Shown: positions 32,856-40,226, counted from the stretch's first letter. The stretch: 64,000 nt of DNA from a plasmid (NZ_CP137558.1), one strand, 5' to 3'. Notes: a model not told the origin generated them from the sequence alone. Program-made: numbers and translations.

Positions 32856-34345
32856 AAAATCCCCTTACCCCATAAAGCGACTTGAGGTAATACGCTGGTT
32901 TAACCAGAAAAGCATGGTCTTTAACCAAAGTCTGTCTTGAACAGGTTGGCATAAGCATTGTTGTCTGAGTAAATATTCAATACATGCCTACGTGATGTCT
33001 TAATCCATTTCGCAGGAACAGAGATGAACTTGAAAACAAAGGTCTTGATTCTGCTGGTGGCACGCAATCCAAATTCATGGGTTTTCAATCTCTGCATAAT
33101 AGCTTTGTAGAAGTTTCTGATGAGAGCTGTCATAAGCAGGAATACAGTATTCTGTGCCATGAACGATTTTGGCAATCGATTCCAGCCAAAGCCATTGTTC
33201 ATGTCATCGAAGATGCGTTCCTTGCCACCACGAAGATTGTAGAATTCCACGATGTCTCTTGCACTCGACTTGTAATCGTTAGTCAGTATACATCTGTAGG
33301 TATATTCGCCTTCCCAAATGTCAAGGTCTCCATCTATTCGCCTTTGTCTCTGTATGACAAGACGATACGGTTTTCCTTTCCATTTCTCAACAAGGATGGA
33401 ATTCAGCTCAAATTCAATACCGTTGATTTCAACAGTTTTCCATCCAGTCAAGGCAAACATGGAATCGTAGAAGGAAGAGCATCTGTTGGCACGAATATAA
33501 AAATGCCTGCAATGAGCCTCTACCATATCTACGATTTCCTCCGAGCATGAGCCGCAATCCATGCGGGCACGGGATATATATACTTCTGATGCCTCCAGTC
33601 GCTTGAAGATTCTTTCCAAAGTCTCTCTTTGGTTGAAGCGCACGTTTGTGTTGCCGTCTCTATTTTCAATACCGACAATCATGTCGTTAATGACTGCCAC
33701 ACCTGGACTATAGCCCAGGAACTTCTTGTAGGTTGGTTTTGCATCATGCTTCTCTGTTTCAATGAACTGATGGTCAAAGTCAAAATCATACTCTTGACCG
33801 GATTTCAATTGACCAGTAGCAAGCAGGGCTTTGATCAATAAGCAGTTCATCTTGTCTGCAGTATTGAAATCATAGGAGTTGCCAGAAGCAGATTTATAGG
33901 TGATGTTCTTACAAGTCAGTTCTTCGATAGCACGCAATATGGTGTCTGCGCTGCAAGTGCGAAGAGTTGGATGAAGAGACAAATGTTTCATCAAGTGAGT
34001 TGTAACATCCTCAATACATGAGCCGCCACAAAGATATACGCACATCAGAGAGCGTAGAATTTCGCTATATTGATAACCAAACATAGTGCATCTCAATCCC
34101 AAGGTGGAATCTATGGTTTGAGCTAAAAGAGCATCAAATTGCTCCATAATAGAAAAAATTCCTCCAAAAGGAGTGAGTTTCTCAGATTTTATTTGTATCT
34201 TTGCCATGTCATATTAGAGTTTTGCTTGTCTTCTTTTCGCAACACTAAGGTAAGTGAAAATTCTGACATGGCAAAATCCTGGGCAACTTTTTGTTGCTCA
34301 GGCACTTATAAATAATGTTAAACTATAGTGTTGCGGAATTAAGGA
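32856..34345 (-). mobile_element. IS1380-family insertion sequence, copy 1
   Basis: Homology to copy 2 begins/ends at these points; ~1.49 kb; left end abuts erm start. Confidence 0.65.
32921..34207 (-). CDS. IS1380-family DDE transposase
   Basis: N-term MAKIQIKSEKLTPFGGIF and C-term YNLRGGKERIFDDMNNGFGWNRLPKSFMAQNTVF parallel ISEcp1-type transposases. Confidence 0.75.
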   Translation of the reverse strand: MAKIQIKSEKLTPFGGIFSIMEQFDALLAQTIDSTLGLRCTMFGYQYSEILRSLMCVYLCGGSCIEDVTTHLMKHLSLHPTLRTCSADTILRAIEELTCKNITYKSASGNSYDFNTADKMNCLLIKALLATGQLKSGQEYDFDFDHQFIETEKHDAKPTYKKFLGYSPGVAVINDMIVGIENRDGNTNVRFNQRETLERIFKRLEASEVYISRARMDCGSCSEEIVDMVEAHCRHFYIRANRCSSFYDSMFALTGWKTVEINGIEFELNSILVEKWKGKPYRLVIQRQRRIDGDLDIWEGEYTYRCILTNDYKSSARDIVEFYNLRGGKERIFDDMNNGFGWNRLPKSFMAQNTVFLLMTALIRNFYKAIMQRLKTHEFGLRATSRIKTFVFKFISVPAKWIKTSRRHVLNIYSDNNAYANLFKTDFG

Positions 34346-34349
34346 TAAT

Positions 34350-35081
34350 GAACAAAGTAAATATAAAAGATAGTCAAAATTTTATTACTTCAAAATATCA
34401 CATAGAAAAAATAATGAATTGCATAAGTTTAGATGAAAAAGATAACATCTTTGAAATAGGTGCAGGGAAAGGTCATTTTACTGCTGAATTGGTAAAGAGA
34501 TGTAATTTTGTTACGGCGATAGAAATTGATTCTAAATTATGTGAGGTAACTCGTAATAAGCTCTTAAATTATCCTAACTATCAAATAGTAAATGATGATA
34601 TACTAAAATTTACATTTCCTAGCCACAATCCATATAAAATATTTGGCAACATACCTTACAACATAAGCACAAATATAATTCGAAAAATTGTTTTTGAAAG
34701 TTCAGCCACAATAAGTTATTTAATAGTGGAATATGGTTTTGCTAAAATGTTATTAGATACAAACAGATCACTAGCATTGCTGTTAATGGCAGAGGTAGAT
34801 ATTTCTATATTAGCAAAAATTCCCAGGTATTATTTCCATCCAAAACCTAAAGTGGATAGCGCATTAATTGTATTAAAAAGAAAGCCAGCAAAAATGGCAT
34901 TTAAAGAGAGAAAAAAATATGAAACTTTTGTAATGAAATGGGTTAACAAAGAGTATGAAAAACTGTTTACAAAAATCAATTTAATAAAGCTTTAAAATAT
35001 GCGAGAATATATGATATAAACAATATTAGTTTCGAACAATTTGTATCGCTATTTAATAGTTATAAAATATTTAACGGCTAA
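34350..35081 (+). CDS. ermG: Erm-family 23S rRNA (adenine-N6)-methyltransferase, ErmG/ErmB-like (MLSB resistance); apparent -1 frameshift in A-run at 34971-34975
   Basis: [44 protein letters not shown].. aligns across ErmB; as written ORF ends ..FTKINLIKL* at 34995; adding one A restores [35 protein letters not shown] ending 35081. Confidence 0.8.
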
Positions 35082-35554
35082 AAACAATAGGCCACATGCA
35101 ACTGTAAATGTTTAGTTATAGGTAGGGTAGCATAAGTTAAAATGCTATTCTGCCTTTTAAAAGTATGGTATACATTCCAGAGAGAGATTGGATATGTTCC
35201 CGCCTACCGATAGTGCCAAAAACGTAGTGGATATGTTTCCGAGAACGGATACGCTCAAATGACATTCATTCTGTCCTCTCGAGCCATGTTGAGAGCGTGG
35301 TTCTGTTGACTAAAGTACATAATTGATAGTGTGAAAATGCTTGAAATATAAGGCTTATCCGAGGATTTGGACGTAAATCCAGGTCCTCGGATTTTCCGCG
35401 TTTTAGAGGCTGCAAAGAGATGAATTTTTATAGTTGGATAGACAGAAGTGTTGATTTGGGGTTGGATAGACAAAAATATTGACATAAGACCATTGCCATA
35501 ACCTAAGAGAAGAAGAACGGAGAGAAATAACTTTTTAAACGAGGGGGAATTCAG

Positions 35555-38190: not shown

Positions 38191-38323
38191 CGACCCCAAC
38201 GGGGTCGAACCATATAATCTGTAGAAAGGTTCGACCTCCGTTGGGGTCGTGGATTGGGAAGGCACTTCGACCCGCACATTGTATCATGTGCGGTTACTTG
38301 AAGTTCGACTCCCGTTGGGGTCG
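38191..38323. repeat. three copies of hairpin motif GTTCGACyCCsGTTGGGGTCG
   Basis: cgaccccaacggggtcg, gttcgacctccgttggggtcg, gttcgactcccgttggggtcg. Confidence 0.7.
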
Positions 38324-38736
38324 ATGGCTCGTCGTTATTCTGAATCTTAGCAAATCCTCTCTTTTTTAATGAACTGTGTGCTTGATCACTGAAAATAATC
38401 CTTATTTTTGCCACGAGAGTTTTACGAAAGATAAATAGATAAAGTATTGGAAAAGAAACATAACTGTCAGCAGTGCCCACTGAGGCGGCGATACGACCGT
38501 TCACCCAAGTCATTGTTGGGTCGTTTTTGGCGATGGCACATCAATTTCTGTCCGGGATGGAAAGCCTATTTCCTGTCGCTGAGCGAAGAGGAACGGCATG
38601 TATTGAGAAAGCAATACGCTTTTCATAAGCCTCAAATCCGCAACTAAGTCCTTCATCGTCCTATTTACGTGTACACGTTCTCTCATTACTGAATTATTAG
38701 ATAAATTGAGGCTGAAATACCCACTTCTGCCTACAA

Positions 38737-40226
38737 TACCCCCTTACCCCACAATGCGACTTGAGACAATACGCAGTATCATACCCATAAGTTGTAGTCG
38801 TCATCCAAAATCAGTCTGGAATACATCTGCGTAAGCATTATTACAGGTATAGATATTCAGCACATACCACCTTGATGTTCTGATCCATTTGGCTGGTACA
38901 GAGACAAATCTGAAGACAAACGCTTTTATGCGACTTGTTTTATTGGGTCCGAACCTCTTTACGTCAAGTCTTTGGATAATGACCTTGTAGAAGTTACGGA
39001 TAAGTGCTGTAAGAAGAAGGAACACTGTGTTCTCTGCCATGAAGGATTTGGGCAATCTGGACCATCCGAAACCATTGTTCATGTCATCGAAGATGCGCTC
39101 CTTTCCTCCGCGGAGGTTATAGAACTCGACAATCTCTCTTACGGAAGGCTCGTAGTCGTTGGTCAGGATGCAGCGGTATGTGTATTCTCCTTCCCAGAGG
39201 TCAAGCTCACCGTCCATCCGTTTCCGCCTTTGAATCACAAGCCGGTATGTCTTGCCTTTCCACTTCTCTACAAGAATGGAATTCAGCTCAAACTCAATGC
39301 CGTTGATTTCTCCCCTCTTCCAGCCTCTGAGAGCGAAGAGGTCATTGTAGAGCGAACTACAGCGGTTGGCACGGATATAGAAGGTCTTGCAGTGGGTGGC
39401 AACCTCTTCCACGATCTCTTCAGAGCACGAGCCGCAATCAGCTCTGAAACGATTGATAACAAGATTGTTCTGTTCAAACCTTTCGAAGAATCTCTTCAGC
39501 GTGTCCTTCTGATGGAAACGGACGTTTGTGTTGCCGTCGCTGTTCTCAATGCCGACAATCAAATCTCCAATAACCGCCACACCTGGTCGATAACCAAGGA
39601 ACTTCTTGTATGTATGCTTTGCATCATATTTCTCTGTTTCTATGAACTGGTGGTCGAAATCAACATCATACATCTCACCCTCTTTCAGCTGACCAGCTGC
39701 ACACATACAATTGAGCAGTAAGGTATTGAGGGTGTCAGCCGTATTGAAATCGTAGTTCTTACCCGTATCTGACGTGTATGAAATGTTCTCCTGCGTCAGT
39801 TCCTTTATCGCTCTGAGGATAGTGTCAGAGCTGCAGGTACGAAGTGTCGGATGAAGCGAGAGATGGGGCATCAAATGAGTTGTGACATCCTCAATACATG
39901 AGCCGCCACAGAAGTAGATGCTCATGAGAGAACGGATGATTTCGCTGTATTGATAACCATACAGCCTGCATCTTAGACCGAGGGTTGTGTCAATTACATA
40001 TGACAATGTGGAGTCAAATTGCTCCATCATTGCAAATATTCCTCCAAAAGGAGTGGTTTCTCAGATTTTATTGCTTTCTTTGCCATGTCTGTCGGGTTTG
40101 ATACATATTTTGATTTGCAACACTAAGATAGGTGAAAAATCTGACATGACAAAATCCTGAGCAACTTTTTGTTGCTCAGGTACTTAAAAAGTTATATTTA
40201 TAATAGTGTTGCGGAATTAAGGTTAT
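38737..40226 (-). mobile_element. IS1380-family insertion sequence, copy 2 (direct orientation to copy 1)
   Basis: Flank homology with copy 1 (ccccttacccca..gcgacttgag.. at right; ..tagtgttgcggaattaagg at left). Confidence 0.65.
38801..40030 (-). CDS. IS1380-family DDE transposase with 1-bp deletion near 5' end (N-terminal 19 codons out of frame)
   Basis: Copy 1 gagtgagtttctcag vs copy 2 gagtggtttctcag at ~40055; upstream reads MAKKAIKSEKPLLLEEYLQ*. Confidence 0.7.
   Translation of the reverse strand: MMEQFDSTLSYVIDTTLGLRCRLYGYQYSEIIRSLMSIYFCGGSCIEDVTTHLMPHLSLHPTLRTCSSDTILRAIKELTQENISYTSDTGKNYDFNTADTLNTLLLNCMCAAGQLKEGEMYDVDFDHQFIETEKYDAKHTYKKFLGYRPGVAVIGDLIVGIENSDGNTNVRFHQKDTLKRFFERFEQNNLVINRFRADCGSCSEEIVEEVATHCKTFYIRANRCSSLYNDLFALRGWKRGEINGIEFELNSILVEKWKGKTYRLVIQRRKRMDGELDLWEGEYTYRCILTNDYEPSVREIVEFYNLRGGKERIFDDMNNGFGWSRLPKSFMAENTVFLLLTALIRNFYKVIIQRLDVKRFGPNKTSRIKAFVFRFVSVPAKWIRTSRWYVLNIYTCNNAYADVFQTDFG

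Follow-up and report, generated by a model that had tools for sequence, protein, structure and literature searches.

A composite transposon bounded by two different IS1380-family elements carries a frameshifted erm(G) in a Segatella copri pilus operon

Boundaries and Insertion Site

Within the window (the 64,000-nucleotide stretch of NZ_CP137558.1 analysed here), the segment 32753-40222 (7,470 bp) is a composite (class I) transposon of the gut bacterium Segatella copri that moved in one piece. Jointly, the data are best explained by an erm(G) composite with heterologous IS1380-family ends that would have been shortened from a Bacteroidales resistance module and transposed into an S. copri pilus operon, a reading with a probability of about 0.88. 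The erm(G) unit is an already known, ordinary kind of resistance transposon. Its boundaries were obtained by comparison with other copies and contexts of the IS elements, nine other copies defining the ends of the left IS and three contexts those of the right IS (Table 1). The span of the original prediction (32856-40226) was corrected accordingly: the true start lies 103 bp further left, and the end is at 40222.

A search for target duplications of 4-5 bp, which had been proposed with the prediction, revealed TTATG at both outer ends of the unit, while the inner IS flanks read ATAAT and ATAAG, leaving neither IS with a duplication of its own. Removal of the unit together with one TTATG copy gives the exact sequence of related unit-free contigs. 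At least seven related metagenome contigs (L011, L012, L013, L015, L016, L019, and L020) have this empty site in identical form, reading ...TTTTTAATGTTATGTTATAATC.... On either side of the unit (25827-32752 and 40217 onwards), identity to the empty-site contigs is 99.8-100%, and the alignments to L013, L015, and several others are gap-free. Since the duplication is confined to the outer ends and the empty site is precise, the unit was inserted as a single piece, and the predicted composite structure is confirmed. The duplication around a whole unit is demonstrated for this window only, because the other contigs sharing the junction break inside the left IS.

Both IS elements are related and present in multiple copies, which favours recombination and assembly errors; the unit could accordingly have been built stepwise in place by two IS insertions and recombination, or be a chimeric mis-assembly across IS repeats. 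However, the outermost duplication is shared, none belongs to a single IS, the empty site is restored exactly, the internal junctions recur in independent assemblies, and at 71% identity the two IS differ too strongly to be readily exchanged by homologous recombination or collapsed by an assembler. Such an origin is very improbable and already largely refuted.

The target is an operon of the Mfa pilus type. In uninterrupted relatives, the 300-aa fimbrillin gene precedes the 341-aa gene by 57 nt; in the window the two genes flank the unit, in agreement with its predicted position inside a pilus locus. The start codon of the 341-aa gene is 24 nt from the left IS end, and the exact 341-aa protein is recorded in Segatella copri under the name fimbrillin family protein.

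Table 1. Features of the erm(G) unit and its surroundings, in window coordinates.
Feature	Position	Strand	Evidence or remark
Downstream Mfa-like fimbrillin gene, 341 aa (target operon, outside the transposon)	31703-32728	-	Pfam Mfa_like_1
Left target-duplication copy TTATG	32748-32752		single copy in the empty site ...AATGTTATGTTATAATC... of L011-L020
Left IS, 1,592 bp, IS1380 family, IS942-like	32753-34344	-	match to independent copies
Left IS IRR, CCTCAAATCCGCAAC	32753-32767
Left IS DDE transposase, intact, 428 aa	32921-34207	-	NF033539; Pfam DDE_Tnp_1, DDE_Tnp_1_4
Candidate outward -7 box TATCTTTG, inside left IS, facing erm(G)	34196-34203	+	pattern scan, Bacteroidota TAnnTTTG
Left IS IRL, reverse complement CCTTAATTCCGCAAC	34330-34344
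erm(G), frameshifted	34348-35081	+	NF045543 Erm(G) profile; comparison with L001/L002/L004/L006
Class I SAM-dependent methyltransferase, 246 aa, intact	35555-36295	+	Pfam Methyltransf_11, 95.4 bits
HD-domain gene, frameshifted	36333-36826	+	A8 to A7 at about 36520
IS4-family element, internally deleted, 1,067 bp	36848-37914	-	28-nt terminal inverted repeats; NF049925 transpos_IS4_4
Module spacer, 715 bp	37915-38629		belongs to the conserved module
Right IS, 1,593 bp, IS1380 family	38630-40222	-	IRR 38630-38644; IRL 40208-40222
Right IS transposase gene	38801-40086	-	1-nt deletion at 40056; NF033539, 300.7 bits
Right target-duplication copy TTATG	40223-40227		comparison with the empty site
Upstream Mfa-like fimbrillin gene, 300 aa	40261-41163	-	Pfam

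Flanking IS1380-Family Elements

According to ISfinder, members of the IS1380 family are ~1.6-1.7 kb long and have short terminal inverted repeats starting with CC. Both flanking elements (1,592 and 1,593 bp) agree in length and terminal repeats, and duplications of the 4-5-bp type were observed around left-IS copies, the composite (TTATG), and the large module described below (TATAT). The transposase genes share the minus strand, so the pair is in direct orientation. The two direct IS1380 copies of the original prediction were therefore right in family and orientation but are two distinct elements, with identities of 71% (DNA) and 75% (transposase residues). Their terminal repeats are virtually identical, and the two IRLs are the same over 20 nt.

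The left IS shares 98.2% identity with a copy whose annotation reads IS942-family transposase. Over 1,592 bp, eight of nine independent copies are 100% identical to it and the ninth 99.94%; perfect 5-bp duplications surround seven of the nine. Its inverted repeats match at 13 of 15 positions. The left transposase scored 361.7 bits against NF033539 and the right one 300.7 bits (cutoff 180), and the exact left protein is recorded in 7,374 collection blocks.

The nearest named relative of the right IS is IS613 (~88%, from the IS613-family annotation of its 88% relatives). Three different flanks fix its end, and, save one deleted base, it equals the downstream IS of the module in L001-L010. The transposase, 428 aa in the references, is here a 409-aa ORF from an internal ATG (38801-40030). 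This 1-nt deletion was seen at no other locus and could be either an error or a mutation private to this copy.

Origin from the Bacteroidales erm(G) Module

The cargo and the right IS share 99.95% DNA identity with the 3' half of a macrolide-lincosamide module of ~11 kb that is widespread in Bacteroidales; between window positions 34345-40222 and L002, three 1-nt deletions were the sole differences over 5,878 bp. The gene order of the module (L001-L010) is IS-mef(A)-msr(D)-lnu-like-hexapeptide acetyltransferase-erm(G)-methyltransferase-HD-IS4 remnant-IS. It is itself bounded by IS1380-family elements and lies in a SIS-domain gene with a TATAT duplication of its own. According to PMC11162026, erm(G), mef(A), and msr are carried together on CTnGERM1; on the basis of that source and PMC4145004, the ~11-kb module is equated with the CTnGERM1 resistance region.

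Sequence comparison suggests that the unit is a shortened derivative of the module, formed via a third IS just upstream of erm(G). An abundant IS942-like element would have inserted 3 nt ahead of the start codon of erm(G), severing the gene from those upstream and providing a new, shorter pair of outward-facing ends. With the left-IS IRR and the right-IS IRL as outer ends, the whole unit transposed into the 57-bp fimbrillin spacer, duplicating TTATG. No parent locus, with an IS942-like element inside a full 11-kb module, was found in the comparisons.

Like the unit, the CTnGERM1-type module is an IS1380-family composite with a 5-bp duplication, and the stretch that runs from erm(G) through the methyltransferase and HD genes, the IS4 remnant, and the spacer to the downstream IS is common to both (99.95% DNA identity). 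Unlike the module, the unit is without mef(A), msr(D), the lnu-like gene, the hexapeptide acetyltransferase, and the original upstream IS; the IS942-like element 3 nt from erm(G) replaces the upstream part. Its host site is a chromosomal S. copri pilus operon, whereas that of CTnGERM1 is a conjugative transposon backbone. Assignment of the unit to the CTnGERM1 conjugative transposon was rejected, as it lies directly between fimbrillin genes that are contiguous in relatives and only the module fragment is shared.

Mobility and Recurrence

Because the right IRL equals the left IS's own IRL over 20 nt, the intact left transposase sees a matched pair of ends and is the likely catalyst of transposition. 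The IS-ATA-ATG junction was also detected in S. copri F3-48, where the outer flank differs, in gut metagenome contigs L038, L039/L044, and L045, each with its own right flank, and in L047. Overall, the IS-erm(G) junction is followed by at least four different right flanks; the complete unit with both flanks was present in the window only.

The matched IRL, the intact left transposase from a highly active multi-copy IS, the frameshifted right transposase of this copy, and the ability of IS1380 members to mobilise adjacent DNA via alternative ends (PMC9330008) would also suit an ISEcp1-style transposition unit, in which the left transposase used its own IRR and the next IRL-type end, and the right IS was passive cargo. 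The distal end is, however, a bona fide IS terminus free of the degeneracy of surrogate ends, so the product of this route is not distinguishable from a composite transposon. Moreover, ISEcp1 and ISPme1 mobilise DNA on the 3' (IRR) side (PMC9330008), ISEcp1 with degenerate surrogate ends, whereas in the present unit the cargo adjoins the IRL and the far IS terminus is genuine. This route is considered unlikely. The composite transposon resembles ISEcp1-blaCTX-M units in that there, too, an IS1380 member gives an adjacent resistance gene mobility and a promoter, with a 5-bp duplication (PMC9330008); the promoter is a candidate in the present case. As in the unit, a resistance gene lies between two IS1380-like elements of Bacteroidales in the cfiA composite of pBFUK1 (PMC10645880), which differs, by description only, in cargo, IS members, and replicon.

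The unit also has a counterpart with IS of another family. Tn4351/Tn4400 is a Bacteroides composite transposon with ermF flanked by IS4351, and its erm expression depends on the adjacent IS; compared with the erm(G) unit, both the IS family (IS4351) and the erm class (ermF) are different.

Disrupted Reading Frame of erm(G)

Erm(G) dimethylates A2058 of 23S rRNA, resulting in MLSB resistance. The gene predicted as ErmG-like belongs to the Erm family and is Erm(G) itself by profile, but the prediction had missed its frameshift. An A6 tract present in L001/L002/L004/L006 is shortened to A5 at 34966-34970, and the translated ORF (34348-34995) comprises 209 native residues followed by 6 aberrant residues and a stop; the next frame retains the final 35 codons intact. 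The match to NF045543 reached 479.9 bits (cutoff 515) over profile positions 1-212 of 244, the low score and partial coverage being due to the frameshift. Restoring one A yields a 244-aa ErmG identical to the L002 reference. The gene is therefore an erm(G) allele with a disrupted frame. The lost residues 210-244 correspond to ErmC' residues 210-243 and are part of the C-terminal RNA-binding domain. As ErmG is truncated after residue 209, resistance cannot be assumed; unless the frameshift is an artefact of sequencing, this copy probably confers less resistance or none.

Relative to L002, the 5.9-kb segment differs solely by three single-A deletions, two of them in A tracts, and the window extends across multi-copy repeats of 1.6 kb, which indicates long-read data. 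Together with the intact A6 tract of erm(G) in most contigs sharing the junction, and a different A-tract length difference at 34911 in erm(G) of S. copri F3-48, this is consistent with assembly errors in an intact, functional erm(G) conferring MLSB resistance. On the other hand, the A7 allele of the HD gene occurs in ten short-read contigs, the exact 215-aa truncated ErmG product is present in three other samples, and neither ~13.5 kb of flanks nor the left IS had indels or length errors relative to independent assemblies across 58 homopolymer runs of at least 5 bases. Assembly error in all three positions keeps an appreciable chance but is the less probable explanation; the erm(G) frameshift is probably real.

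Candidate Promoter in the Left IS

The left IS ends at 34344 and the erm(G) ATG begins at 34348. This 3-nt gap is in line with the predicted abutment of IS end and erm start, and the geometry recurs in related loci; at three IS1380 members, the distances from IRL to gene start are 3 nt for erm(G), 12 nt for mef(A), and 19 nt for a beta-lactamase gene. A 3-nt spacer without a leader has no room for another promoter, so erm(G) transcription would have to start within the left IS, a mode established for cfiA with IS942 or IS1187 upstream; the left IS is therefore the putative source of the promoter. For Bacteroidota, the -7 consensus is TAnnTTTG (PMC9330008; bioRxiv 10.1101/2024.04.05.588293). 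Pattern scanning gave TATCTTTG as the only perfect match facing erm(G), ~145 nt upstream, and no convincing -7 box in the last 130 nt before the gene.

In Bacteroides fragilis, insertions of IS942, IS1187, and IS613-615 at cfiA involve the IS family found here (the left IS being annotated as IS942-family), likewise place an IS terminus a few bases before a resistance gene, and are associated with high expression (PMC13509656, PMC9330008); IS942 upstream of cfiA goes with high-level resistance (PMC13509656). In contrast to cfiA, a resident silent gene, the gene driven by the candidate promoter is an imported Firmicutes-type erm(G), and the IS doubles as a transposon arm.

Erythromycin selection in P. 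copri needs high erm(G) expression (PMC8634118). In L035, an independent IS1380 insertion lies 0 nt upstream of the erm(G) ATG, and the same -1 slippage of the erm(G) A6 tract was found in four different contexts. A Segatella-adapted, self-mobile erm(G) transposon, selected for its promoter and with the A6 tract as a reversible on/off switch, would unite these points, although we regard it as speculative and quite improbable. If true, the IS942-like/erm(G)/IS613-like unit is a shortened form that moves from one chromosomal site to another without relying on conjugative transposons, selection is driven by the need of erm(G) for a strong local promoter in Prevotellaceae, the insertions at 0 nt (L035) and 3 nt are repeated solutions to that need, and the A6 switch lowers the cost of carrying erm(G).

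Other Cargo

The predicted SAM methyltransferase gene, HD-domain gene, and ~1-kb IS remnant are all present, but the HD gene is frameshifted. The methyltransferase DNA is 91% identical to a gene on ~400 plasmids of Enterococcus, Staphylococcus, and Streptococcus. Reference copies of the HD gene encode 164 aa; in the window an 80-aa ORF is left, with the rest in another frame, and the A7 allele is common to all contigs L038-L047.

The terminal inverted repeats of the IS4 remnant (28 nt at 96%) contain a perfect 22-nt core, exact on both strands, which corresponds to the 22-bp repeats predicted; 100 shuffles gave 0 matches to the pattern. Matches to NF049925 transpos_IS4_4 cover profile positions 5-75 and 98-205, and only the N-terminal part of the transposase (about the first 205 of 449 residues) is retained. 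An Rfam search of the spacer gave no match; a 21-nt GC-rich motif is present there in three copies (38187-38326). The 4.4-kb segment had been described as markedly AT-rich, which applies to 34345-36847 (32.7% G+C) but not to the remnant (46%) or the spacer (42%). A 66-aa ORF (38447-38647, plus strand) lies mostly in the spacer, its last 18 nt being inside the right IS.

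Composite Transposition into the Pilus Operon

The contents of the region at 32.7-40.3 kb were derived from the ORF listing and from Pfam and NCBIfam searches and are shown in the table. The erm(G)-carrying unit occupies 7,470 bp (32753-40222) of an Mfa-type pilus operon of Segatella copri and is bounded by two IS1380-family elements. Ten related metagenome contigs were retrieved using the 300-aa fimbrillin protein as a query; only 57 nt separate the 300-aa from the 341-aa fimbrillin gene there. The empty site reads ...TTTTTAATGTTATGTTATAATC... in the seven contigs whose sequence was compared at this position. 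In the window, the left flank ends in ...AATGTTATG and the right flank starts with TTATGTTATAATC; therefore, five bases were duplicated around the whole unit. The search for target duplications proposed with the original prediction thus returned TTATG at 32748-32752 and at 40223-40227. On their inner sides, the two IS are flanked by ATAAT and ATAAG, which matched nothing. The chromosomal flanks were 99.8-100% identical to the related contigs and aligned without gaps to L013 (left) and L015 (right), two pilus loci with an uninterrupted site. There is direct evidence that the unit moved by composite transposition, and both stepwise assembly in place and chimeric mis-assembly are excluded.

The interpretation of the region as a composite unit was essentially right, and the finding is genuine. 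The unit belongs to well-known classes, namely IS1380-family composite transposons, putative IS-borne promotion of a resistance gene, and the CTnGERM1-type erm(G) region, and it leaves the understanding of IS1380 elements and Erm enzymes unchanged. The new features are the heterologous IS pairing, the 3-nt junction, the occurrence at several sites in S. copri-type genomes, and the frameshifted erm(G).

Features of the composite unit and its immediate surroundings
Feature	Position	Strand	Details
Mfa-like fimbrillin genes	either side of unit		Pfam
Left IS1380-family transposase gene	32921-34207	-	428 aa; NF033539, 361.7 bits (cutoff 180)
Erm(G) gene	ATG at 34348	+	ORF listing, Pfam, NCBIfam
Class I SAM methyltransferase	35555-36295		ORF listing, Pfam, NCBIfam
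HD-domain gene, split	from 36333		ORF listing, Pfam, NCBIfam
IS4-family transposase	36848-37914		two fragments between 28-nt inverted repeats
Spacer	between IS4 remnant and right IS		715 bp
Right IS1380-family transposase gene	38801-40030	-	409 aa; NF033539, 300.7 bits

Boundaries and Relationship of the Flanking IS Elements

The left edge of the unit had been placed at 32856, evidently because the two IS align mutually only from about 32854/38733 on. Starts at 32854 and 38733 were dropped, since the IS942-family copy L022 and nine further copies put the true left end at 32753. Each IS reaches about 100 bp beyond the mutually alignable part, and copies elsewhere delimit the left IS to 32753-34344 and the right IS to 38630-40222. 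A 98% identical copy of the left IS is present on a B. ovatus plasmid under the annotation "IS1380-like element IS942 family". The nine further copies were found via the exact transposase sequence; eight were 100% identical over 1,592 bp and one was 99.94% identical. Perfect 5-bp target duplications at seven of these nine independent copies establish the IS termini as well as the length of the duplication. The inverted repeats at the termini read CCTCAAATCCGCAAC (IRR) and CCTTAATTCCGCAAC (IRL). Two 100% identical copies (L024 and L031, both at 5864-7455) had no target duplication; the former adjoins a beta-lactamase/esterase fusion, and the latter sul2-like and aph genes. Their position by resistance-type genes hints at further IS-mediated rearrangements or composites.

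The flanking IS had been described as copies of one element. Their global identity is 71% for DNA and 75% for the transposase, which makes them different elements: the left one is IS942-like, and the nearest named relatives of the right one belong to the IS613 family (~88%). The two share a stretch of 15 identical nt in the IRR and of 20 in the IRL, and the termini are predicted to be interchangeable.

Origin of the Resistance Segment

Ten Bacteroidales loci (L001-L010) carrying a macrolide-lincosamide module of about 11 kb were retrieved. Most share, with variations, the order IS1380, mef(A), msr(D), lnu-like nucleotidyltransferase, and hexapeptide acetyltransferase in the 5' half, followed by erm(G), methyltransferase, HD gene, IS4 remnant, a 66-aa ORF, and a second IS1380; in L007, the upstream gene set differs from the other module loci. 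The large module, too, is a composite bounded by IS1380 elements; in L002, L004, L006, and L010, it splits a SIS-domain gene and has TATAT flanks. In the literature, the combination of erm(G), mef(A), and msr is ascribed to CTnGERM1 (PMC11162026). Positions 34345-40222 of the window are 99.95% identical to the part of the module from erm(G) to the downstream IS, with only three differences from L002 in 5,878 bp. The ORF lengths (409 vs. 428 aa) had raised a circular permutation of the usual module, which was dropped after BLAST; the right IS proved to be the usual downstream IS of the module with a 1-nt deletion.

There are 1,212 collection blocks with the exact methyltransferase protein. About 400 plasmids of Enterococcus, Staphylococcus, and Streptococcus carry a gene with 91% identity to the methyltransferase segment, and the G+C content of 34345-36847 is 32.7%; both values fit a Firmicutes origin of the cargo. 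The IS4 remnant is unrelated to the 408-aa transposase encoded at 18025-19251. In the conserved spacer of the erm(G) module, a 21-nt GC-rich motif, GTTCGACYYCCGTTGGGGTCG, is present three times at 38187-38326 (two direct copies and one inverted) and has no Rfam match.

Homology to the module starts directly after the left IS end, at 34345, leaving 3 nt to the erm(G) ATG. In the simplest history, an IS942-like element would have inserted directly upstream of erm(G) in the full module, the IRR of the left IS and the IRL of the downstream IS would then have become a new, shorter transposable pair, and the shortened unit would have transposed. The parent locus, an IS942-like element within the full 11-kb module, was not found in one genome scan and one metagenome scan. 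The empty site and the target duplication document the repackaging of a macrolide-resistance gene of putative Firmicutes origin by abundant gut IS elements. The outcome is a smaller unit hopping within Segatella (Prevotella) copri chromosomes, outside the conjugative transposon from which this gene set is commonly described.

Frameshifts within the Unit

In comparison with L002, one A is missing at each of three sites. In erm(G), an A6 tract is shortened to A5 (34966-34970), leaving 209 native and 6 aberrant residues with the loss of residues 210-244. In the HD gene, an A8 tract is reduced to A7, and in the right transposase gene one A is absent at 40056, outside any homopolymer. The HD A7 allele occurs in all gut metagenome contigs L038-L047, S. 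copri F3-48 keeps the intact A8, and the A7 allele is accepted as real from these comparisons. The deletion at 40056 was seen in no other locus. A 409-aa transposase record shared by more than 1,000 contigs was dropped as support for it, since the frame in L045 is intact and was called from an internal ATG; at least in part, the 409-aa database records result from start-codon calling.

The erm(G) frameshift is rather likely to be real, because the 215-aa truncated ErmG was recovered from three other samples with different surroundings, and because 58 homopolymer runs (≥5 bases) in the flanks and left IS had no length discrepancy against independent assemblies. The A6-to-A5 change was observed in L033, L034, and L035 as well as in the window and covers at least four genetic contexts: the full module, a GrpB-linked locus, another IS junction, and the present unit. 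This points to recurrent slippage at the tract. By alignment, the missing segment corresponds to residues 210-243 of ErmC', which are helices of the C-terminal domain in the ErmC' structure, and the activity of the truncated ErmG is probably impaired. For resistome surveys, erm(G) is present here as a frameshifted allele, and gene counts would overstate phenotypic resistance.

Expression of erm(G)

The spacing to erm(G) is 12 nt from the acetyltransferase gene in the full module and 3 nt from the IS in the window. We infer that erm(G) transcription starts inside the left IS, which would supply the promoter, since no erm leader or attenuator is left upstream and the IS is so close. Counting against this, a single perfect Bacteroidota -7 box facing erm(G) was found: the candidate, TATCTTTG (34196-34203), is located some 145 nt ahead of the gene, overlapping the start of the transposase gene on the opposite strand. 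In a sigma-70 scan, whose model is not applicable to Bacteroidota, sites were no more frequent than in shuffled sequence. Outward promoters are known in IS1380 members (PMC9330008), and high-level carbapenem resistance goes with IS942 upstream of cfiA (PMC13509656). In the retrieved loci, the IRL of two other IS1380 members lies 12 nt from mef(A) and 19 nt from a beta-lactamase gene. For P. copri, yields of transconjugants under erm(G) selection spanned a range of about 300-fold depending on the strength of the promoter (PMC8634118). An in-frame ATG for erm(G) is also present at 34315, within the left IS terminus, and a start there would lengthen the product by 11 residues (34315-34347); gene callers in other contigs start at the IS-internal ATG and report a 255-aa "ErmG".

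Distribution and Host

The IS-erm(G) junction, GGAATTAAGGATAATGAAC (...GGAATTAAGG ATA ATG...), recurs in Segatella copri F3-48, where the outer flank differs, and this was the only GTDB representative genome containing it. It was further found in the gut metagenome contigs L038, L039/L044, L045, and L047, where three additional, mutually different sequences adjoin the right IS. In L035 (1-140), a related IS end is joined straight to the erm(G) ATG with a 0-nt spacer, and in L036 (5155-7050), a third IS1380 member lies inside erm(G) at about window position 34638. The exact 341-aa fimbrillin is listed as a Segatella copri protein by NCBI and UniRef, and the flanking pilus DNA had no match in the plasmid collection.

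Pilus Operon and Remaining Window

The 576-aa and 300-aa fimbrillin genes lie on one side of the unit and the 341-aa and 590-aa genes on the other; all of them are on the minus strand. With the operon split by the insertion, fimbrial expression could change. The left transposase gene reads toward the 341-aa gene, with 24 nt between the IS end and the ATG of the latter, and no terminator-like site was predicted between them; polarity or read-through in the operon is possible.

Rfam searches of the full window at gathering thresholds and of 37850-38700 at E ≤ 1 gave no matches, and no tRNAs were detected in the window. Two of the Mfa-like proteins (590 aa and 576 aa) have tandem 26-aa repeats with the motif CYxxMFxGCTxLxSAPEL in their C-terminal parts, encoded by 78-nt units at 30187-30445 and 41410-41746. 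The corresponding genes encode 524-590 aa among related contigs, and these length differences suggest that the repeat copy number varies. In the intergenic region 29440-29870, downstream of the 590-aa gene, there are two inverted repeats that can form hairpins (29580-29666 and 29754-29870), along with several short direct repeats (TCACGCAGA...). Positions 1511-25826 (~24.3 kb) are missing from related metagenome contigs, in which 1510 is joined to 25827; a short near-repeat (GAAAGT and AAAAGT) marks the boundaries. This segment encodes three tyrosine integrases, a MobA/VirD2 relaxase, an IS4/IS701-like transposase, and a Peptidase_C10 protein and looks like one or more integrated mobilisable elements.
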